This document shows, piece after piece, positions 3,917-58,735 of a stretch of 64,000 nucleotides of DNA. Every line of letters starts with the position of its first letter. Position 1 is the stretch's first letter. The stretch is from a phage. The translations under genes were made by a program, and so were the position numbers. The stretch lies in the sequence record PZ445523.1; one strand, given 5' to 3'. The notes under the pieces are model-generated. The model ran no database searches and had not been told where the DNA came from. It was given only the letters and a program-made list of their open reading frames with translations.

Positions 3917-5528
<1,612 letters not shown>

Positions 5529-5531
5529 TCC

Positions 5532-6710
5532 TTAAAAGTATTTTTTAAAACTCATCATAACTTTATCATCAACATCATTATCAATCTGTGCAACAAGGTA
5601 AGATGACAGTTCTACTTCTTGTGGCGCGGATTGAACATTATCAGAATTAAGATATTCACGAATCCAAGGATATGGATGTTTAACCGGAGCATCGGTAATT
5701 GGGCATGGAAGACCACACTGCTTCATACGAGATACAGTTAAGTAATCAATAAAGCTCCACATGCTATTTGTATTTAATCCAGGAACATCGCCATCTTTAA
5801 ATAAATGAACTGCCCAATCTTTTTCTTGGCGGTTAACTTCCATGAAAATATCAACTGCTTCTTGCTCACACTCTTGAGCAATTTTAACCCATTCATCGCC
5901 ATCAGTGCCAAGTTGAAGTTGACGAATAATATATTGAGTGCCTTTAAGGTGAAGCTGTTCATCACGTGCAATGAACTTCATAATCTTGGCATTACCTTCC
6001 ATGATTTCCATATTCTTATGAAAGTTAAAGGTACATGCAAAAGATACATAAAAACGAATAGCTTCCAATGCGTTGATTACATGAAGGCAAAGATAAAGAG
6101 ATTTCATTAGTGCTCGTTTAGCTTCGGCTTCTTGTTTAATAGCTCGATTTAAACGAAAATCAGCATCAGGAGATTCTTTAGCTAGTTCTACAAATTCTTT
6201 AGCATTTTCCCATTCACGAGTTTTAATCAGAACATCATCATAATAACGTCCAATGGATTCAGCACGTTTCATAATAGCTTCATCTAGTACAATCTCATCA
6301 AATACCTTTGACGGATCAGTATAAAGATTTCGCATGATATGTGTATATGAACGGCTGTGAATAGTTTCACTAAAAGTCCACGTAGCAACCCATGTATCAA
6401 GGCTCGGGTCTGAAATTAATGACATAAGTACAGCAGACGGCGCACGACCCTGAATGCTATCCAAAAGCGATTGATACTTCAGATTATTAGTAAAAATATT
6501 TTGCTGATACTGAGGAAGCTTATTAAACTGTGCAGCATCCATCATTAAGTTTACTTCTTCGGGACGCCAGAAAAATGACAATTGCTTTTCGGTCAAATCT
6601 TCAAAAACTTTATGGCGTTGAATATCATAACGTGCAATACCAAGACCTGAACCAAAAAACATAGGTTCTTTTAAAACATCAACTGGATTTGTATTAAAAA
6701 CTGTGCTCAT
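5532..6710 (-). CDS. nrdB: ribonucleotide reductase small subunit, uninterrupted
   Basis: 392 aa continuous ORF; ferritin-like di-iron protein at the T4 nrdB position. Confidence 0.9.
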   Translation of the reverse strand: MSTVFNTNPVDVLKEPMFFGSGLGIARYDIQRHKVFEDLTEKQLSFFWRPEEVNLMMDAAQFNKLPQYQQNIFTNNLKYQSLLDSIQGRAPSAVLMSLISDPSLDTWVATWTFSETIHSRSYTHIMRNLYTDPSKVFDEIVLDEAIMKRAESIGRYYDDVLIKTREWENAKEFVELAKESPDADFRLNRAIKQEAEAKRALMKSLYLCLHVINALEAIRFYVSFACTFNFHKNMEIMEGNAKIMKFIARDEQLHLKGTQYIIRQLQLGTDGDEWVKIAQECEQEAVDIFMEVNRQEKDWAVHLFKDGDVPGLNTNSMWSFIDYLTVSRMKQCGLPCPITDAPVKHPYPWIREYLNSDNVQSAPQEVELSSYLVAQIDNDVDDKVMMSFKKYF

Positions 6711-6761: not shown

Positions 6762-9026
6762 TCATAATTTACAGGATGAACAATCTTCAGCTTTTGGAGT
6801 TTCTATTTCATAATCATCAGTACCAGAACCATCGCGGGTATTATGATAATAGAAATTTTTTCCGCCAAAATACCAAAAATACAAAAGGTCATCAATCATT
6901 ATTGACATTGGAACCTTTCCTTTTGGAAAAATCTGCGGGTCATAGTATGTATTCGTTGAAGCTGATTGACACACCCATTTCAGCATAATAGCTACCTGCG
7001 TAAGATAAGGTTTATTACCTTTCTTAGCTAATTTCCACGTATAATCATATAGGTCTATGTTATGCTCAATATTGGGCACGACTTGATTAAAGGAGCCCTC
7101 TTTTGATTCTTTAACAGAGACTGGTCCACGTGGAGGCTCGATACCGTTTGTACTGTTAGAAACTTGGGAAGATGACTCACATGGCATAAGTGCTGATAAT
7201 GTGCTATTACGGATGCCAAAGAGCTTAAGGTCTTCCCGCAGCGACGACCAGTCACAAACGTATTTTGGAGCTGCGATTTGGTCAATCTTTTTATTGTACC
7301 AGTCGATAGGTAATTCGCCTCGAGACCAACGAGTGTCTGAATAATATTCGCAAGGTCCTTTTTCTTTGGCGAGCTTAATGGATGCTTTAATGAGTCCATA
7401 CTGTAATCTCTCAAATAGTTCATGTGTTAAATCGTTAGCATCTTCATAAGAAGCAAAGTTACTTGCCAGCCAAGCTGCATAGTTGGTAACACCTACACCG
7501 AGGTTACGACGCTTTTTGGCTTTTTCTGCTTCAGGAACCGGATATCCTTGGTAATCCAAAAGATTATCAAGAGCACGAACTTGGACTTCTGCCAATTCAT
7601 TAATTTTATCTTGGTCTTGCCAATCAAAGTTATCCAGCACAAATGCTGATAACGTGCACAATCCAATTTCAGCATCAGGGCTATTCACATCATTTGTTGG
7701 AATAGCAATTTCACAGCACAAGTTACTCTGACGAATAGGTGCCTTTTCACGAATAAACGGAGTGTAGTTATTCGTATTATCAATGAACTGCACATAAATC
7801 CTTGCTGTTCCTGAACGTTCAGTCATGAGCAATTCAAATAGTTCACGAGCTTTAATACGCTTTTTACGAATATTAGGGTCTTTTTCTGCTGCTTCGTATA
7901 ATTCACGGAAACGGTCTTGGTCTTTAAAATAAGAATAATAAAGCTCTCCACCCATTTCATGTGGACTGAACAAAGTAATGTAATCGTTCTTTCCAAAACG
8001 TTCCATCATTAGGTCATTCAGTTGAACACCATAATCCATATGACGGATACGGTTTTCTTCTACACCTTTGTTATTTTTCAAAACGAGAAGATTTTCAACT
8101 TCCAAATGCCAAATAGGATAATAAGCAGTTGCAGCGCCGCCACGAATTCCGCCCTGTGAACATGATTTAACAGCAGTCTGAAAATGTTTCCAAAAAGGAA
8201 TAACCCCAGTATGGCGTACTTCACCCATGCCAATCTTAGAACCTTCGGCACGAATCATACCAACGTTAATACCAATTCCAGCGCGTTTAGAGATATATTC
8301 AACAATCGAAGCGGAAGCCTTATTGATAGACTTCAGCGAATCACCTGCCTCAATAACAACACATGAACTAAACTGTCGAGTCGGAGTACGACAACCAGCC
8401 ATAATAGGAGTTGGTAATGAAATCTGTCGAGTAGATACTGCTTCATAAAAACTAATAACATGTTTTAATCTATCAACAGGTTCATCTTGATGCAATGCCA
8501 TTCCAATAGTCATAAATGCAAACTGCGGAGTTTCATAAATTTGACCAGTGGTTTTATCTTTAACTAGATATTTTTCTTTTAATTGCATCGCCCCGGAATA
8601 AGTAAATTCCATATCCCGTTCGTGCTTAATTTTTGATTCTAAAAATGTAATTTCTTCTGCTGAATATTTTGACAATAATTCAGGGTCATATTTACCTTCA
8701 TTTACACAATAAGAAATATGGTCAATAAATGAACGTGGTTCATACTGTCCATAAACATGCTTACGAAGAGCAAACATTAAACAGCGTGCAGCTACATATT
8801 GATAATCAGGCTCTTCAACTGAAATAGAATTCGCAGCAGCCTTAATGACAATAGTCTGAATATCATCAGTTGTCATTCCATCACGGAGATAAGATTTAAT
8901 ATTTTCATATAATTCATAAGGATCTACTGATGTTCCTTCAGCTGCCCAAGATAAAACTTTAATAATTTTTTGCGGGTCAAAGCTCTGAGAAACACCACTA
9001 CTTTTGATAACATTAATTAATTGCAT
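6762..9026 (-). CDS. nrdA: ribonucleotide reductase large subunit
   Basis: 754 aa, same length as T4 NrdA; class I RNR alpha features. Confidence 0.95.
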   Translation of the reverse strand: MQLINVIKSSGVSQSFDPQKIIKVLSWAAEGTSVDPYELYENIKSYLRDGMTTDDIQTIVIKAAANSISVEEPDYQYVAARCLMFALRKHVYGQYEPRSFIDHISYCVNEGKYDPELLSKYSAEEITFLESKIKHERDMEFTYSGAMQLKEKYLVKDKTTGQIYETPQFAFMTIGMALHQDEPVDRLKHVISFYEAVSTRQISLPTPIMAGCRTPTRQFSSCVVIEAGDSLKSINKASASIVEYISKRAGIGINVGMIRAEGSKIGMGEVRHTGVIPFWKHFQTAVKSCSQGGIRGGAATAYYPIWHLEVENLLVLKNNKGVEENRIRHMDYGVQLNDLMMERFGKNDYITLFSPHEMGGELYYSYFKDQDRFRELYEAAEKDPNIRKKRIKARELFELLMTERSGTARIYVQFIDNTNNYTPFIREKAPIRQSNLCCEIAIPTNDVNSPDAEIGLCTLSAFVLDNFDWQDQDKINELAEVQVRALDNLLDYQGYPVPEAEKAKKRRNLGVGVTNYAAWLASNFASYEDANDLTHELFERLQYGLIKASIKLAKEKGPCEYYSDTRWSRGELPIDWYNKKIDQIAAPKYVCDWSSLREDLKLFGIRNSTLSALMPCESSSQVSNSTNGIEPPRGPVSVKESKEGSFNQVVPNIEHNIDLYDYTWKLAKKGNKPYLTQVAIMLKWVCQSASTNTYYDPQIFPKGKVPMSIMIDDLLYFWYFGGKNFYYHNTRDGSGTDDYEIETPKAEDCSSCKL

Positions 9027-9580: not shown

Positions 9581-10441
9581 TTACACCGCCATCTTTCCTT
9601 TAATTGGCGGGTGAGATACATAGTTGTTAAGAACAAAATTATGCGGCTTTGCGAATTGACTCAACCAAAATACCTGCGATTCTGTGTTCCATTCATCAAA
9701 TTCATCTGGAAATTTTAATTGTAATTCGCATAAATCCATAGGTTCACGACGCAAAATTTCTTTACATTGTTCTACGTGATTCATATAGATATGAGTATTA
9801 CCACCAGAAAATATCAAATCTCCAGGAATAAGATTACACATCTTAGCTACAATATGAACTAACGTAGCATATGATGCAATATTAAATGGAAGACCGAGGA
9901 AAACATCTACCGAACGTTGATACCACTGCAAATCCAAATAGCCGTTACGCACATTAAACTGATAGAACATATGACAAGGCGGTAATGCCATCTGCTTGAG
10001 TTCAGCTGGATTCCATGCAGAAACAATTTGACGCCTATCATTTGGCAATTTTTTAATACGATCAACAACTTCTATAATTTGGTCTACACCGCCAAAATCG
10101 CGCCATTGTTTTCCATAAATTGGACCAAGTTCACCGCTATGGTATCCTAAATCTTTTGCTTGATTTTCGTAATTTTCATCCCAGACTGTTTTGCCTTGAA
10201 TTAATGAATCATGTTGAATTAATCGTAAATCATTGACATTTGTGCTTCCCGATAAAAACCATATTAGCTCAGCAATGCAAGCTTTCCAGGCGAGCTTCTT
10301 AGTTGTTACTGCAGGAAAACCTTTAGTTAAATCCCAGCGTAATTTAGTACCGAACAAAGCAATTGTTCCTGTGCCCGTTCTGTCATCGGTTTCATAGCCA
10401 TTTTCAAAAATGTCTTTAATTAAATCTTGGTATTGTTTCAT
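9581..10441 (-). CDS. td: thymidylate synthase, intronless
   Basis: 286 aa uninterrupted ORF; active-site PCH ([11 protein letters not shown]). Confidence 0.95.
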
Positions 10442-10486: not shown

Positions 10487-10846
10487 TCAATACGGTTTAG
10501 CATCAAATTTTCTCTCAATTTCAGGCGTGAAATATAATTCTTTACCGCGTTTGGAAAAGCGACCAATAATATGATAATTATTCTCATCAAACGTAATATT
10601 ACCAATATCCATAGCTTTCAACCAAATATCGATATTTCTATCCAGCTTTATGTCAAAATTCCAATACGGAGAACTATTACCGAAAATACTGCAAGCAGAT
10701 TCAGTGAAACAACTGCTATAAATCTTGTCTTTAGGAACTACTAATTGATAGACACCTTTAATAAACTGAGGACCCTGCCATTTAGGTTGTTTCACGTCTT
10801 TTTCTAATAGAATAGGGTAATAATTAAAATTCATATTTTCCGCCAC
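10487..10846 (-). CDS. hypothetical protein inserted between frd and td
   Basis: 119 aa frame (first codon GTG; first ATG at 10834 gives 115 aa); T4 frd and td abut directly. Confidence 0.5.
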   Translation of the reverse strand: MAENMNFNYYPILLEKDVKQPKWQGPQFIKGVYQLVVPKDKIYSSCFTESACSIFGNSSPYWNFDIKLDRNIDIWLKAMDIGNITFDENNYHIIGRFSKRGKELYFTPEIERKFDAKPY

Positions 10847-10854
10847 GCGTTATT

Positions 10855-11677
<823 letters not shown>

Positions 11678-11693
<16 letters not shown>

Positions 11694-12037
11694 TGAAAAG
11701 AGTCATGAGCATATCCGCTAGCGTCAATCATTTTAACTAAAGTTACCATTCCTCTGTTAACTGCTTGCGCGATTTCATCAAAAACTTCGTCACTATCATC
11801 GTAAAGATCATTAAAAAGTTCTAACACGTTCTTCTGAACTTTTAATTTACGGCCGACAATTTCGCCTACAGTAAATTCGTTTCCGCCAAATCCAGCGTAA
11901 AATGTAATTACACCCATTAACTGGCTTTCACGGGAATCTATGTCGTGTGATAAATTAATAAAAGCCGTCCCAGGCGCGGTTTTAAGTTGGCAACGAATTT
12001 TTACTTGGGTAATTCCAGTTATATGAATGTTAGACAT
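11678..12037 (-). CDS. hypothetical protein (frd.2 position)
   Basis: 119 aa ORF. Confidence 0.45.
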
Positions 12038-12860: not shown

Positions 12861-13088
12861 TTATTGTTCAATCAGTCCCATGTAAAATTCTGCGTCTTCA
12901 GCATCCATACCGTCGCAGTATTCATTAGCCATAAAGCGGGTGAGGTCTTCAAGAGGACCTTCAATAACGATTTGAATACTCCAAAACTTAGAATCTTGCA
13001 CGCTTGTAATACTAAGTTCAGGATAACGATTACGAATAATCTCTTCAATATATTCAAAATCAACAATATCAATATCAACTTTAGCCAT
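12861..13088 (-). CDS. hypothetical protein
   Basis: Start taken at MAKVDID (ATG 13088) with AAAGAGGAAAATAAT-ATG RBS; track ORF extends to 13151 across the promoter. Confidence 0.45.
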
Positions 13089-13124
13089 ATTATTTTCCTC
13101 TTTAATTATTAGCAGTATTGTCGA

Positions 13125-13161
13125 TAGTTGTATAGTACCATGGAAGGACAAGGATGTAAAC
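13125..13161 (-). promoter_or_regulatory. phage early promoter (repeat family copy)
   Basis: Minus strand GTTTAC, 18 nt, TGnTACTAT; conserved flanks CAACTATCGACA shared with other copies. Confidence 0.6.
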
Positions 13162-13182
13162 AGTTTTGTGAAAAAATTTTTG

Positions 13183-13211
13183 AAATAAAAAAGGGGACCT
13201 CTAGGGTCCCC
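13183..13211 (-). terminator. rho-independent terminator after gene 32
   Basis: GGGGACC-TCTA-GGGTCCCC hairpin followed on the minus strand by TTTTTTATTTC. Confidence 0.75.
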
Positions 13212-13233
13212 AATTAATTAGTAATATAATCTA

Positions 13234-14139
13234 TTAAAGGTCATTCAAAAGGTCATCCAGGTCCGTGTCATCAGCACTAGATGAACTGCCAGAGCTTGAG
13301 CTCATAAAATCATCTTCAGTTTTTGTATTGAAGTCATCAACATTGAATGCATCCAAATCATCAGCAACTTTATCAGCTTTCTTAGCAGCAGTTGCAGCGG
13401 CACCGCCCATCACAGCAGTTCCCATAACTTGACTGAACTTAGTGCTCAGTTCTTCAAACGATTTGAATTTATCTTTAGAAGTCATTTCAGAAAGGTCAAC
13501 CATTTGTTCGAACAGTTCTTTCTGGAAAGATTCATCGTCAATGTTTGGAATCGCAGATTGATTTAGGAATTTAGATTCATCGTAGTTACTAAATCCAGAA
13601 ACTTGTTTAACTTTCAGTACAAAGTTAGCACCTTCCCACGGACAAGTTACATCAACTGGAGTTTCACCCATTTCAACATCAACCGCAATCATCGCGTTGA
13701 TTTTATCCCAGATTTTCTTACCGAAACGATATTTAAATACTTTACCTTCATTTTCTGGAGCAGCTGGGTCTTTTACAACAAGAATATTAGCCCAGTAAGA
13801 AGTTTTACGTTTAACAAGATTGTACTCTTTATTGTCAGTGTTGTACAGATCATTTTTACTGATGTATTGACATACTGGGCAAGAATCGTAATCACCATGG
13901 GTAGATGAACATGTTTCAATATACCATTTACCATTTTTCTTGAAACCGTGATTTACAAGAATTGCGAATGGTGCTTGTTCATCATTTTTAGACGGAAGAA
14001 AACGAATTACTGCTTGACCGTTACCCGCATTATCGAGTTTCAGTTTCCACTCGCCTTTATCTTCAGAAGAAAAACCTTTATTGCCATTCAGTTTAGCCAT
14101 TTGTGCAGCAAGTTCAGCAGTAGATTTACGTTTAAACAT
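13234..14139 (-). CDS. 32: single-stranded DNA-binding protein gp32
   Basis: 301 aa; zinc subdomain H..C..C..C ([15 protein letters not shown]); acidic C-terminal tail. Confidence 0.95.
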
Positions 14140-14200
14140 TTTATTTCCTTTTTAATTTAATTTAATTAACAGTTGGTGCTATGACACTTTACCTCATAGC
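14140..14200 (-). promoter_or_regulatory. gene 32 translational operator (pseudoknot plus A/U-rich gp32 binding tract)
   Basis: Minus strand reads GCCAGCTATGAGGTAAAGTGTCATAGCACC...TTAATTAAATTAAATTAAAAAGGAAATAAA-ATG, the known T4 gene 32 leader architecture. Confidence 0.75.
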
Positions 14201-14826
14201 TGGCATAATTCGCAATACTCTGGGTCTTCGAGAGGTATCCAACCTGAGTTGAAATACTTTACCATCGATTTAGCAGTTGTATCAGTTATATTTATATTAC
14301 CTTTAACTCTTCGCCATCCAGGAGTTTTACCGTACAGATTAGAGGATAATAATAACACATAATTCTCGTAAGCGATATGAGATAATTTCCAAGACTCTAT
14401 ATTAGCTCGTGATGTTTTCCAAGGTCTAAAATCGTCACGGTTCATATAATTAGCCAATCTCATATGCTCTCTAACTTCCGGGTCTTTGGCTGGATGAGTT
14501 TCACCACTCACACCAAATCCACCACCAGCATATACCAGATTAAAATAGTCTGGATTATCTCTGGCATTTACTTCAAGTTGGTATTTTCGTTCTGCTTCAA
14601 TAACATCCAAGTCATCATCAATTTGAATTATTTTAACGCTCGGTTTTTGAAGCATTACCGCATTCAAAAATCTTTTTTGTTTACATGAGCTCCAGTATTC
14701 CTTTCCAGAAGAGTCATATATTATTCCGTTCTCAAATGAGCAATTTAATTTACTACCGATATAGTAGTATGGCGGAGTCTTATTTTTGACACGGTCTTCA
14801 AATGTAAACCAATATACTATATTCAT
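14194..14826 (-). CDS. segG: GIY-YIG homing endonuclease, SegG-like
   Basis: 210 aa; N-terminal NIVYWFTF ... YYYIGSK GIY-YIG-like module; lies between 32 and 59 as T4 segG does. Confidence 0.6.
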   Translation of the reverse strand: MNIVYWFTFEDRVKNKTPPYYYIGSKLNCSFENGIIYDSSGKEYWSSCKQKRFLNAVMLQKPSVKIIQIDDDLDVIEAERKYQLEVNARDNPDYFNLVYAGGGFGVSGETHPAKDPEVREHMRLANYMNRDDFRPWKTSRANIESWKLSHIAYENYVLLLSSNLYGKTPGWRRVKGNINITDTTAKSMVKYFNSGWIPLEDPEYCELCQL

Positions 14827-14827
14827 A

Positions 14828-15481
14828 TCAATACTTGCAAGATTTCACAGTTTCAATGAAAACATTTTTAGCTTTCTGTGAATCAATATTTAAAATTTTT
14901 CTATAAGCCTTTAACTTTATAGAATAATTATTCCAGACTAAATTATCAGTCTGTTCATCATGTTTATCAATTATATTTAAAAATGAATCAAGCAAGATAA
15001 ACGTCTCAAACGAAATTATGTTCGATTGCAGAAGTTTAAAAATATAACTTGACTGAACCTTTGGATTATATTCAAAGATTTCTTTAAAAGCAGAAACTTC
15101 AACTTTTTTACTAAAATAGTAAATATTGCGAATATCTTCTTCAAACTTAAATTTAATTTGCTTCAAGCGTCCGATATATTCACGATAAAACACAAGTGCA
15201 TCAGCGTCAGAGATGTCGCCAATCCAAGCATCTTGGTTAGCAACCAAATTACTTATAAAGATTAAAGCAAGTTCCTTTAATTTATATTTTTCTGATAACT
15301 TCTGGAAAAAATACTTATCCCTTCGCTTTTGATAAGCGGCATCAGACACCCGCATGCACCAATTATACTTAATTACATCATACTTTCCATTCATATGTTG
15401 TTTTATCATTAAGTATAATTTATAAACTGATTTACCATCAATGTATCTTTCACCACCAGCAGGCATGCGGAGTTTAATCAT
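14828..15481 (-). CDS. 59: helicase loader gp59
   Basis: 217 aa, same length and N-terminus (MIKLRMPAGGERYIDG) as T4 gp59. Confidence 0.88.
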   Translation of the reverse strand: MIKLRMPAGGERYIDGKSVYKLYLMIKQHMNGKYDVIKYNWCMRVSDAAYQKRRDKYFFQKLSEKYKLKELALIFISNLVANQDAWIGDISDADALVFYREYIGRLKQIKFKFEEDIRNIYYFSKKVEVSAFKEIFEYNPKVQSSYIFKLLQSNIISFETFILLDSFLNIIDKHDEQTDNLVWNNYSIKLKAYRKILNIDSQKAKNVFIETVKSCKY

Positions 15482-15816
15482 AGTAGAAAATCTAATGTAT
15501 TAGTTTTTTCACAACGAACAACAGAAGGACGTAAAAGATTTTCGTCAATAGCTTCTGACTGAATTTTTTCAATTATACCCGAAGGAATAAATTTAGCAAA
15601 TTGAGTTTCAGGAATAGAGTTTTCTTCTAAGAATGCTGTCGTAGCTTCAAGATAACTCATTCCAAACTCTTCTACCATTTTTTCAATAATAAATCCATTT
15701 TCTTGACGATCAAGAAGCTTTGCTATTTCATCCTTTTCTTTCTTGATTGAAAGTTCTTTTTCTGAAAGACCGGTCTCATCGACCGGACGAATATCATTTA
15801 GAGAAAACTGTGTCAT
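15478..15816 (-). CDS. 33: late transcription co-activator gp33
   Basis: Start taken at MTQFSL (112 aa, T4 gp33 size); syntenic. Confidence 0.7.
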   Translation of the reverse strand: MTQFSLNDIRPVDETGLSEKELSIKKEKDEIAKLLDRQENGFIIEKMVEEFGMSYLEATTAFLEENSIPETQFAKFIPSGIIEKIQSEAIDENLLRPSVVRCEKTNTLDFLL

Positions 15817-38206: not shown

Positions 38207-40027
38207 CTATTGGCTCATCCATTCTTTACGAAGGTCAGCATTATCTCCCATGAGCATTTCAAAAAGCTCTTTCCAGTTCTCAGGAAGTTTAACAACATCA
38301 TATACTGGGTTTTGAATCATCTCACGATATTCAGATTTTTCCAAAGAGCCAAGTCCCTTAATATAACGGATGCTATGTTTAGGTAGAGCATCTTTAGCAC
38401 TCTCATATTCAGCGACTGTATAAAACCATTCTTGTTTTTTACCGACCTGAGCGATGATTACAGGAGTTTTGACAAAGCGAATTCGTCCTTGCTCAAACAA
38501 TTCTGGCCAATTACTAAAAAATCCAAGCAGAGAAGGATAAATGCTTCCTAGACCATCATGGTCAGCATCAGTCATAATAGCGATATTATGATAATTCAAG
38601 TTTTCAGCTTTTTCACCGAGAACTAATCCAGTGATTGCGCAAATATCAAATAGTTCTTTGTTTTTAAGCATATCTGCATAAGACATACCCCAACTGTTGA
38701 GAACTTTACCACGCAATGGATAACCACCGTGAAGTTCTTTATCACGAACATCAATAAGATATCCGATAGCAGAATCACCCTCAGTCAAGAAAAGAGTAGT
38801 GTCAGCATCTTTACCACAAAGATTCGCTTTGATATGTTTATGAACCTTAGCTTTAGAAGCCTTTTTAGCTGCTTTAGTTTCTGCTGCTTTTTCTGCCGCC
38901 AATTTACGAGCCAAAGCAGCTTCAATAATCGGCATTAGAATTGCTTCATTATTCAAAATAGCGCGTGAAATCTTTTTAGCATCAAGCTGAATATGACTAC
39001 GGATTTCACCAAATGGAGAAGTCAAACGCTCTTTAGTTTGAGAATCAAATCGCATGTTTTTCATATCACGAACAAACATAACGATAGTCAAACATTCTTT
39101 AACGCGTGCTTTAGTTACATCAATTTTGAACTTACGTTTGATTTGTGGAATAAGGTCTTCACAAATATCATCCATAACGCAGTCAATGTGATGGCCACCA
39201 TTCTTAGTATGAATGTTATTCACATAAGTTAATTGGCGAAATCCATCCGGTGAACGACCAACCGCAATAGAACAATTTTCTTGTTCTTGAACGATAGCAT
39301 GCTCATCATATTGGCGTGCATATTTCTTAAAATTGCCCTGAACCTTTTTACCATTAAAGGTAAATTGAATATCAGGATAAACTACTGCAAGTGTCTGGAG
39401 ACGATCTAGTGTAATGTCAAGATAAACTTGTGACAGCTCATTAGTTTCAAATGACATAAAATCAGGAATGAAAGTAACACGAGTTCCTTTCCATTTTCCA
39501 GGAATATCTTCCCATGATTTATTTTCCATGCCATTTGAACAACGAACTACAATATTATTTTGACCGTCGCCAGTTTCACCAACAAACATCACAGAAAAAA
39601 TGTTTGTCAAACTAGAACCAACACCATTCATACCGCCAGTGACGCGCTCTTTGTCATCACCAAAGTTACCACCTGCTTTTGGAATAGTCCACGCAGCAAC
39701 AGGACCAGGAATTTCTTCACCGGTAGGTGTCTTAACCATCGCTTGTGGAATACCACGACCGTTATCTTCAACTGTTACTTGATTGTTTTTAATAGTAACA
39801 TTAATTTTATTTGCGAATTTAAACTTAGTACGAATACCTTCATCTACTGAGTTATCGATAATTTCATCAATAAGCTTAACAAGACCAGGTACATACTGAA
39901 CACTTTCCCATTTACCAAACAGAAAGCGCTCATGCATTTCATTAGCTGAAGAGCCAATGTACATGCCGCTACGCTTTTTGATATGTTCAATATCGCTCAG
40001 AATTTTAATTTCATTCTTAATCATCAC
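38207..40027 (-). CDS. 39: DNA topoisomerase II large (ATPase) subunit, unsplit gene 39 (39 plus 60 equivalent)
   Basis: 606 aa continuous ORF; GyrB-like ATPase; covers what T4 encodes as 39 plus 60. Confidence 0.92.
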   Translation of the reverse strand: MMIKNEIKILSDIEHIKKRSGMYIGSSANEMHERFLFGKWESVQYVPGLVKLIDEIIDNSVDEGIRTKFKFANKINVTIKNNQVTVEDNGRGIPQAMVKTPTGEEIPGPVAAWTIPKAGGNFGDDKERVTGGMNGVGSSLTNIFSVMFVGETGDGQNNIVVRCSNGMENKSWEDIPGKWKGTRVTFIPDFMSFETNELSQVYLDITLDRLQTLAVVYPDIQFTFNGKKVQGNFKKYARQYDEHAIVQEQENCSIAVGRSPDGFRQLTYVNNIHTKNGGHHIDCVMDDICEDLIPQIKRKFKIDVTKARVKECLTIVMFVRDMKNMRFDSQTKERLTSPFGEIRSHIQLDAKKISRAILNNEAILMPIIEAALARKLAAEKAAETKAAKKASKAKVHKHIKANLCGKDADTTLFLTEGDSAIGYLIDVRDKELHGGYPLRGKVLNSWGMSYADMLKNKELFDICAITGLVLGEKAENLNYHNIAIMTDADHDGLGSIYPSLLGFFSNWPELFEQGRIRFVKTPVIIAQVGKKQEWFYTVAEYESAKDALPKHSIRYIKGLGSLEKSEYREMIQNPVYDVVKLPENWKELFEMLMGDNADLRKEWMSQ

Positions 40028-57834: not shown

Positions 57835-57895
57835 ATTTTCCTCACTGGTTAAAGATAGAGTAATTATAACACAATAAATTTAGGCATTAATCAAC
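57835..57895 (-). promoter_or_regulatory. MotA-type middle promoter for uvsX
   Basis: Minus strand AATGCCTAA (MotA-box-like), about 11 nt, TGTTATAAT extended -10 upstream of uvsX. Confidence 0.5.
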
Positions 57896-58735
57896 TGCTA
57901 TTGGATGAATAGCATTAAACTTATGAAATGCTTCTGATTTTTCTTTACGCGAAACACACATGCGAAGAACCTTTAGTGGTTCATCTTCTTCACCCAACGA
58001 TTTTCGTTTTTCAATATTCGATGTTTTCCAACGAGCTTGCTCTGGAAACTCTCTATTGATTTGTTCAAGCGCTCTATTATGTTTAGAATTACTACGAATT
58101 GAACTACACCCACCGGGAGCGTGTGATTTTCCAGATACAACCAGATATTTGAACAAGGCCAAATGCGGATAACCTTGATTAATTAAATTGAGAAATGCAT
58201 ACATATCTTCGCATAAATCAATTTTTCCGTACCCAATTTGTTCTGTGGTAAGTTTTCCGAGGTCATACCATGTATTCGTGAATCCATATGAATTTTCACG
58301 ATAATTACCCCAAGATGAAGTAATTTTAAAAATTGGTAAACGAGCATGACCATGATAATACCCGCAATCCATGGCATCCTCAACATATTGAATCAATTCA
58401 TAGAACTGTTCACGAGTCAATTGATTGACTTTATCTACACAACGCCGATCATCTCTTTTTCGCATTGAACTCATACGAATAGTAGTATCATCGTCAATCA
58501 TCCAGATTCGTTGACCTGCATACATATCAGTAATTGCTTTACGAGTTCCGGCAATTCCGTTTACATCATCAGGAATAGTTATAATTTTAGCTCTAGACCC
58601 ATAGGCATCATAATAAGCTTTTTCTTCGTGTTCACGCACTACAATATGTGGTTCATAATCAGTCGGAAACATATCAAGGGCAGAAACTGCCCCGACACGC
58701 TGATAGCTTGGAATTACGAATTGAATCATTTCCAC
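57887..58735 (-). CDS. DNA glucosyltransferase, GT-A-like with DxD motif (T2/T6 beta-alpha-gt type)
   Basis: 282 aa at the locus where T4 carries the 351 aa beta-gt; RIWMIDDDTT DxD motif. Confidence 0.6.
   Translation of the reverse strand: MEMIQFVIPSYQRVGAVSALDMFPTDYEPHIVVREHEEKAYYDAYGSRAKIITIPDDVNGIAGTRKAITDMYAGQRIWMIDDDTTIRMSSMRKRDDRRCVDKVNQLTREQFYELIQYVEDAMDCGYYHGHARLPIFKITSSWGNYRENSYGFTNTWYDLGKLTTEQIGYGKIDLCEDMYAFLNLINQGYPHLALFKYLVVSGKSHAPGGCSSIRSNSKHNRALEQINREFPEQARWKTSNIEKRKSLGEEDEPLKVLRMCVSRKEKSEAFHKFNAIHPIAVD

Follow-up and report, generated by a model that had tools for sequence, protein, structure and literature searches.

The window analyzed here, a 64,000-nucleotide stretch of phage DNA (record PZ445523.1), contains between genes 59 and 32 a reading frame whose 3′ end runs into the regulatory leader of gene 32, which raises the question of what this gene is and how its end came to lie inside an RNA structure controlling its neighbor. 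The evidence leaves little doubt that the frame is the T-even phage gene segG, which codes for a free-standing homing endonuclease and sits as a cassette in the spacer between genes 59 and 32, ending in the gene 32 pseudoknot. Within the present analysis, this conclusion was based on identity to T4 segG, the predicted fold, the sporadic distribution, the junctions, and the pseudoknot with its overlap; the literature supplied the nuclease activity of SegG, its gene 32 target, the homing behavior, the locations of the promoters, and the RNase E site. The gene itself, its homing, the embedded promoters, the RNase E site, and the pseudoknot overlap are all already known from work on T4, and none of them is new.

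Identity and Position of the Gene

On the minus strand, the window presents, in order, gene 59, a 210-aa ORF, a 54-nt spacer, gene 32, and a strong intrinsic terminator. The corresponding features are as follows:

14828–15481, minus strand: gene 59 (helicase loader), whose stop codon is the 5′ junction of the segG cassette (ORF list, T4 annotation, RB51/ST0 comparison)
14194–14826, minus strand: segG (ORF 32.1), coding sequence including the stop codon, 210 aa, free-standing homing endonuclease (ORF list, T4 SegG match, PHROG 7504)
13234–14139, minus strand: gene 32 (ssDNA-binding protein gp32, 301 aa), operator-regulated, the published SegG cleavage target in segG-less phages (ORF list, T4 annotation, PMC2988022 Table 1)
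13193–13211, minus strand: intrinsic terminator hairpin after gene 32

The ATG of the ORF lies one base past the stop codon of gene 59 (TGA), and 54 nt separate its own stop codon, likewise TGA, from the downstream ATG of gene 32 at 14139. The initial annotation had described a 210-aa ORF between genes 32 and 59 in the position of T4 segG. The ORF was confirmed at 14194–14826 on the minus strand, and it was found not only to occupy that position but to be segG, since its product is identical to T4 SegG (AAD42455.1) at 209 of 210 residues (99.5%, no gaps) and its flanks are identical as well. The sole difference in the protein is L57V. According to the ORF map and the T4 annotation, orientation and position between gene 59 and gene 32 are the same as in T4, and the T4 reference record labels the ORF [quoted passage not shown]. 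The product also matched PHROG 7504, "homing endonuclease", from end to end (E = 1.9e-133). The SegG paper cited in both PMC2988022 and PMC535899 is that of Liu, Belle, Shub, Belfort & Edgell (2003, J Mol Biol 334:13).

A megablast search with positions 13200–15500 matched 719 phage records, with Pinarejo, RB3, and HP3 as the best matches (~99% identical) and T4 at 98.5% identity across the full 2.3 kb. The 200 nt around the segG/32 junction correspond to the T4 sequence, save for one A fewer beside the gene 32 ATG and one synonymous change. The window and T4 therefore share the gene, its 59/32 site, the way its 3′ end joins the pseudoknot, and the TATAAATA motif embedded in the gene, and differ in L57V and in the missing A of the gene 32 leader. 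An ORF arising by chance was ruled out by the identity to T4 SegG, the PHROG 7504 match, and the occurrence of a copy at 95% identity or more in about 141 records.

The Nuclease Domain

GIY-YIG nucleases are characterized by Mg-dependent double-strand cleavage that leaves 2-nt 3′ overhangs. A module resembling this family had been proposed for the N-terminus of the ORF product; the proposal was upheld by the predicted fold and by published biochemistry, but not by any sequence-profile match. When the window SegG was searched against Pfam and NCBIfam at E values up to 10, no matches were obtained, GIY-YIG profiles included. The initial annotation had named the lack of a GIY-YIG profile match as a ground for rejecting the assignment, and taken strictly this is what was found; it was overridden because of the fold evidence and the published SegG biochemistry.

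Other sequence-based comparisons gave similar outcomes. Neither a nuclease nor a GIY-YIG protein was recovered when phmmer and a 26-sequence family profile were run against all PDB sequences, and PF19835 (SegE_GIY-YIG) was touched by only one of the 26 family members (E = 0.035). With hhalign, an alignment of 18 family N-domains was insignificant both against I-TevI (E = 0.14, the weak alignment setting E79 on E75) and against DenA, the GIY-YIG protein of the window. DenA (5094–5528) served as a positive control and matched PF01541 at 4.8e-6. Pfam and NCBIfam do not recognize the SegG-type nuclease domain, and automated annotation consequently misses the GIY-YIG assignment unless structure is used.

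An AlphaFold2 model built on the family alignment (mean pLDDT 90.6) displayed two domains with a disordered linker at residues 104–107:

14518–14826, minus strand: N-terminal nuclease domain, residues 1 to ~103, divergent GIY-YIG fold (AlphaFold2 model)
14197–14490, minus strand: C-terminal all-helical domain, residues ~113–210, presumed DNA-binding/target-recognition module

In the predicted structure, the N-domain has the alpha/beta fold of GIY-YIG nucleases, a three-stranded sheet with flanking helices. Among the structural searches, Foldseek of the SegG model against PDB returned I-TevI as the top match, at a level below significance, and Foldseek against BFVD returned phage proteins named GIY-YIG, Seg-like, or NUMOD (E = 1e-4 to 5e-3). 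As GIY-YIG nucleases appeared first and repeatedly among the fold matches, the fold predicted for SegG matches that of I-TevI and the GIY-YIG family.

Comparison was made with the catalytic domain of I-TevI, a canonical GIY-YIG domain (PDB 1LN0/1MK0), to which SegG has insignificant sequence similarity. I-TevI is intron-encoded, whereas SegG is free-standing and carries another DNA-binding domain. Positions Y5, R12, P19, Y22-I23-G24-S25, Y44, S47, E79, F95, N96, and A100 were invariant in 18 family members, down to 38% identity, and Y5, YIG22–24, E79, and N96 are the natural, putative counterparts of I-TevI Y6, YVG17–19, E75, and N90. The spacing from GIY to YIG in SegG is 17 residues as against the usual ~10, with an inserted helix in between. 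In the SegG family, no canonical Arg is evident ~8 residues after YIG, and the R12 of the inserted helix is invariant. Relative to I-TevI, SegG thus has an extra short helix bearing R12 between strands 1 and 2, and a beta-hairpin stands in place of the helix that bears R27. R12 is, in our own reading, a candidate substitute for I-TevI R27.

Two modestly novel readings may be added, both of them minor or unlikely. The SegG N-domain could represent a GIY-YIG subclass whose arginine has been relocated to the inserted helix and which is invisible to profiles, or termination on segG could be coupled to gp32 autoregulation on unprocessed mRNA; that one or the other applies is rather doubtful.

The divergence of the GIY-YIG motifs beyond the reach of profiles might also suggest that segG is a domesticated or decaying remnant with an inactive nuclease, kept only for what it carries of gene 32 regulation (the promoters, the site of RNase E cleavage, and the pseudoknot's 5′ arm), and an argument for retention through embedded promoters does exist in the literature (PMC2988022). 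However, SegG is listed as an active endonuclease with gene 32 as its target (PMC2988022 Table 1), and in T4 × T2 crosses it excludes T2 gene 32 (PMC2330249, PMC2988022); the window allele is one conservative residue away from this experimentally active T4 protein. The putative catalytic residues Y5, Y22, G24, E79, and N96 belong to the set invariant across the 18 members, which argues for purifying selection on the nuclease domain, and the ORF is intact in about 141 records. An inactive remnant is therefore very improbable, and an active nuclease is the reading retained below.

Distribution, Mobility, and Mosaic Context

Copies of SegG at 95% identity or more were found in about 141 phage records, with an intact ORF, and in the megablast search 141 records covered at least 80% of the 59-segG-32 query. 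The gene 32 leader region was found at 90% identity or more in 496 records, so that segG is present in only ~141 of roughly 500. A comparison with relatives lacking the ORF, as proposed in the initial annotation, was provided by RB51 (Tequatrovirus) and ST0 (Mosigvirus), in which gene 59 is followed by a spacer of 99–122 nt and then by gene 32, with a clean junction. At the 59/32 site, Dhakavirus VR5 and the Gaprivervirus phages RZ and VR7 carry divergent segG alleles (58%, 39%, and 53% identity, the last over half).

Among relatives, at least three kinds of C-terminal module are attached to the SegG-type N-domain, the C-terminal domain being swapped for others (NUMOD3 plus zinc-finger types). 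The NUMOD search suggested earlier was productive in distant family members, where NUMOD3 was detected above the Pfam threshold (E = 6e-7 to 2e-14), but not in the window SegG, which had no Pfam match. These distant members adjoin gene 49 or rpbA, or split uvsX.

In Proteus phage Pm5461 (901–1623 of the extracted segment) and Pseudomonas phage PspYZU05 (901–1752 of the extracted segment), a gene with a SegG-type N-domain and NUMOD3 was observed between the uvsX halves, and the RecA-like uvsX of both phages is annotated as two CDSs.

The description of the ORF as a free-standing mobile nuclease gene was borne out by its sporadic presence, the clean junctions, the fold, and the published activity. 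The same observations bear on the opposite view, that the ORF is a conserved non-nuclease phage gene whose resemblance to GIY-YIG is spurious. Although no Pfam, NCBIfam, or PDB sequence-profile match was obtained, as such a view would have it, most close relatives are without the ORF, GIY-YIG nucleases came first and repeatedly among the fold matches, the family includes NUMOD3 fusions and genes that interrupt uvsX, and SegG endonuclease activity has been published (PMC2988022, PMC2330249). A non-nuclease gene is hardly credible on this evidence, and in its universally conserved form it was rejected on distribution and fold.

As a mobile nuclease, SegG joins a highly divergent N-terminal GIY-YIG nuclease domain to a helical, presumed DNA-binding domain at its C-terminus. 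Published experiments establish SegG as a site-specific endonuclease that is directed at gene 32 of phages lacking segG and promotes its own inheritance. When a phage with segG and a relative without it infect the same cell, SegG would cut gene 32 of the latter, and repair of the break from the segG-bearing genome would copy segG together with flanking T4-type gene 32 sequence into the recipient. Such copying would constitute intronless homing, or marker exclusion. At the sites where T4 and RB51 differ, T4-type alleles were unbroken from 14951 to 13821, a tract that takes in the 3′ end of gene 59, all of segG and the leader, and gene 32 as far as its first ~320 nt; in the comparison of the window with RB51, polymorphisms occur throughout gene 32. 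Judged from the alleles, an unbroken T4-type tract around segG is consistent with co-conversion.

A separate patch was observed at 13142–13447 (minus strand), in the region of the gene 32 3′ end and terminator, where RB51/T2-type alleles occur at 15 consecutive informative sites with a T4-type stretch around them, which indicates a recombination patch.

The phage as a whole is a T-even mosaic, T4-like specifically around segG-32 and T2/T6-like at other loci. In contrast to T4, it lacks introns in td and nrdB as well as mobE, its gene 39 is fused, and it encodes a beta-alpha-glucosyltransferase. The td (286 aa, 9581–10441) and nrdB (392 aa, 5532–6710) genes are uninterrupted on the minus strand, and nrdA (6762–9026, minus strand) lies just 51 nt from nrdB; the T4 group I introns of td and nrdB (I-TevI, I-TevIII) and mobE are therefore absent. 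The topoisomerase II large subunit is encoded by one 606-aa ORF (38207–40027, minus strand), with no gene 39/60 split and no mobA, and the ORF after uvsX (57887–58735, minus strand) encodes beta-glucosyl-HMC-alpha-glucosyltransferase, as in T2/T6, with no segA. Three small ORFs absent from the T4 map were also noted, one of them located between frd and td and the other two between frd and frd.1 (10487–10846, 11436–11693, and 11678–12037, all on the minus strand); they match PHROGs 1928, 3183, and 3566, of unknown function.

The Gene 32 Operator and the Signals Within segG

In T4, the operator of gene 32 comprises a pseudoknot of ~28 nt (PMC535899) that begins 67 nt upstream of the AUG (PMC3014915), followed by UUAAA repeats and the ribosome-binding site. 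The pseudoknot binds gp32 and is needed for autogenous repression, as established for T4 (PMC535899, PMC3014915). Among the work on the T4 and T2 pseudoknots, PMC3014915 cites McPheeters 1988, Shamoo 1993, and the NMR structure of the T2 form (PDB 2TPK). In the window, the corresponding elements are located as follows:

14178–14205, minus strand: gene 32 translational-operator pseudoknot, 28 nt, T4 −67 to −40 (T4 identity, covariation, PMC3014915, PMC535899)
14202–14205 with 14190–14193, minus strand: pseudoknot stem 1, UGCC / GGUA
14201, minus strand: pseudoknot loop 1, A
14194–14200 with 14178–14184, minus strand: pseudoknot stem 2, GCUAUGA / UCAUAGC
14185–14189, minus strand: pseudoknot loop 2, AAGUG
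14140–14177, minus strand: unstructured A/U-rich part of the operator (UUAAA/UAAA repeats) and Shine-Dalgarno sequence, with one A fewer than T4 upstream of the ATG (function from PMC535899)

The 28-nt sequence is identical to the T4 pseudoknot, with 4 bp in stem 1, 7 bp in stem 2, one base in loop 1, and five in loop 2. In the T2/RB51 type, by comparison, stem 1 has one more pair (UGACC/GGUCA, as opposed to UGCC/GGUA in the window) and loop 2 has 7 nt instead of 5 nt. The leader alignment comprised six types (T4-type, T2/RB51-type, Mosigvirus, two Dhakavirus, and Jiaodavirus), over which 94.4% of the cells were paired and compensatory double changes were found in 8 of the 12 pairs. The observed covariation score was reached by none of 500 shuffles, and pairing fell to 25–51% when the 3′ partners were slid by 1–3 columns as a control. 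On the basis of this covariation across the six leader types, clear in Tequatrovirus (T4-type, T2-type), Mosigvirus, Dhakavirus, and Jiaodavirus, the pseudoknot is considered real and conserved.

No obvious counterpart of the pseudoknot was seen in the gene 32 leaders examined from Gaprivervirus (RZ, VR7), Karamvirus (Pet-CM3-4), and the unclassified Enterobacter phage MY742, and autoregulation of gene 32 may work differently in these phages. Their leaders keep AACUGU and the A/U-rich repeats; two of them lie at 2140–2190 and 2170–2236 of the respective extracted segments. An Rfam scan of 13000–15600 gave no pseudoknot family, the only match being a chance snoRNA-like one (E = 0.095).

The claim that the segG 3′ end overlaps the pseudoknot held, but the extent had been given too short: the overlap covers 12 nt (14194–14205) and not 7 (14194–14200). 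The shorter interval is merely the 5′ arm of stem 2 (GCUAUGA); segG additionally contains loop 1 and the whole 5′ strand of stem 1, so that its last four codons, TGC CAG CTA TGA (14205–14194), account for all three elements. It was evident that the nuclease gene is fused to a regulatory RNA structure, as the initial annotation had it, with its 3′ end inside the operator pseudoknot of gene 32. This was stated explicitly for T4 by Borjac-Natour et al. 2004 (PMC535899), who described the 5′ part of the pseudoknot as overlapping the segG reading frame and proposed that segG is a chimera, extended into the pseudoknot of the recipient.

The junctions bear on this proposal. Homology between segG-plus and segG-less genomes ends at the stop codon of gene 59, and homology to RB51 and ST0 resumes at CCAGCTATGAGGT, which corresponds to window position 14203 by BLAST and to the 5′ edge of the pseudoknot; the two kinds of genome part exactly at the bases 5′ of CCAGCUAUGAGGU. 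From these limits in RB51 and ST0, the segG cassette extends from the gene 59 stop codon to the pseudoknot, and it substitutes for ~36 nt of ancestral spacer. Since it reaches the first base pairs of the pseudoknot, the segG frame terminates within that structure. In Dhakavirus VR5, the allele stops ~36 nt before its own pseudoknot, and the overlap is therefore specific to the T4-lineage junction and no property of the family. In protein length, the VR5 homologue differs by one codon at most (…EFIKLKCLT* against …EYCELCQL*), so only the last three or four codons of segG need come from the pseudoknot. Read in this manner, the junctions support the chimera proposal of PMC535899.

Further signals of gene 32 are located within segG:

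14289–14296, minus strand: TATAAATA late-promoter motif in segG, candidate late promoter of gene 32 (pattern match)
about 14209, minus strand: position that matches by homology the −71 RNase E site of T4 gene 32 mRNA, inside segG (T4 sequence identity and PMC3014915)

The middle and late promoters of gene 32 have been located within segG (PMC2988022), and in segG-less RB51 the equivalent TATAAATA late promoter sits in the 59-32 spacer. The number of TATAAATA occurrences in the window was not above chance, and a scan for sigma-70 promoters gave 13 matches compared to 11.1 in shuffles, with no excess; the promoter assignment consequently leans on the literature and not on statistics. The RNase E-homologous position lies five codons ahead of the segG stop. 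Every gene 32 mRNA is processed by RNase E 71 nucleotides upstream (PMC3014915), and as this cut falls within segG, it leaves the segG mRNA without a stop codon. The fragment upstream of the cut is reportedly degraded fast.

The geometry of the overlap invites a reading in which it is functional and not a by-product of the junction. On polycistronic messages, ribosomes completing segG would open up the 5′ half of the pseudoknot, briefly relieving gp32 autorepression, and gp32 bound to the pseudoknot would block the completion of SegG, with the consequence that nuclease output would track free gp32. With the segG stop codon within stem 2 and the last four codons spanning both stems and loop 1, the entire 5′ half of the pseudoknot would inevitably be occupied by a ribosome at termination; segG, which lacks its own promoter in the 59-32 interval, is also expressed as part of polycistronic messages from upstream (PMC2988022). 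However, RNase E cuts all gene 32 mRNA species at −71 and parts segG from the operator (PMC3014915), and the late-promoter transcript begins within segG (14289–14296) and therefore cannot make SegG. The VR5 allele, ending short of its pseudoknot, has no such overlap, and the literature search found no experiment that addresses segG-gp32 coupling. Such coupling is quite improbable overall, and RNase E processing together with late transcripts from within segG makes a large role for it unlikely.

The overlap is thus best regarded as a product of the cassette junction, and the gene 32 signals (the late and middle promoters and the RNase E −71 site) have likewise come to lie within the ORF of the nuclease. 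We infer that retention of the selfish gene would thereby be tied to the expression of gene 32, an essential gene, and that RNase E processing, in making stable gene 32 mRNA, would sever the segG mRNA from its stop codon and expose it to decay. Among the free-standing nuclease genes of T4, segA, segE, mobB, and mobC likewise harbor promoters of the downstream gene, the cassette having displaced the signals originally present between the genes (PMC2988022); in contrast to these, the segG frame also enters a structured translational operator and crosses an RNase E site. The locus is a good textbook example of a selfish nuclease cassette welded to the regulatory signals of an essential gene and for that reason hard to lose.

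A sigma-70-like consensus match (ATGACA, 17 nt, CATAAT, with an upstream TG) was also noted at 14181–14209 on the plus strand, antisense to the pseudoknot and the end of segG. PMC3014915 cites Belin et al. 1987, whose title names antisense transcription of the T4 gene 32 region.
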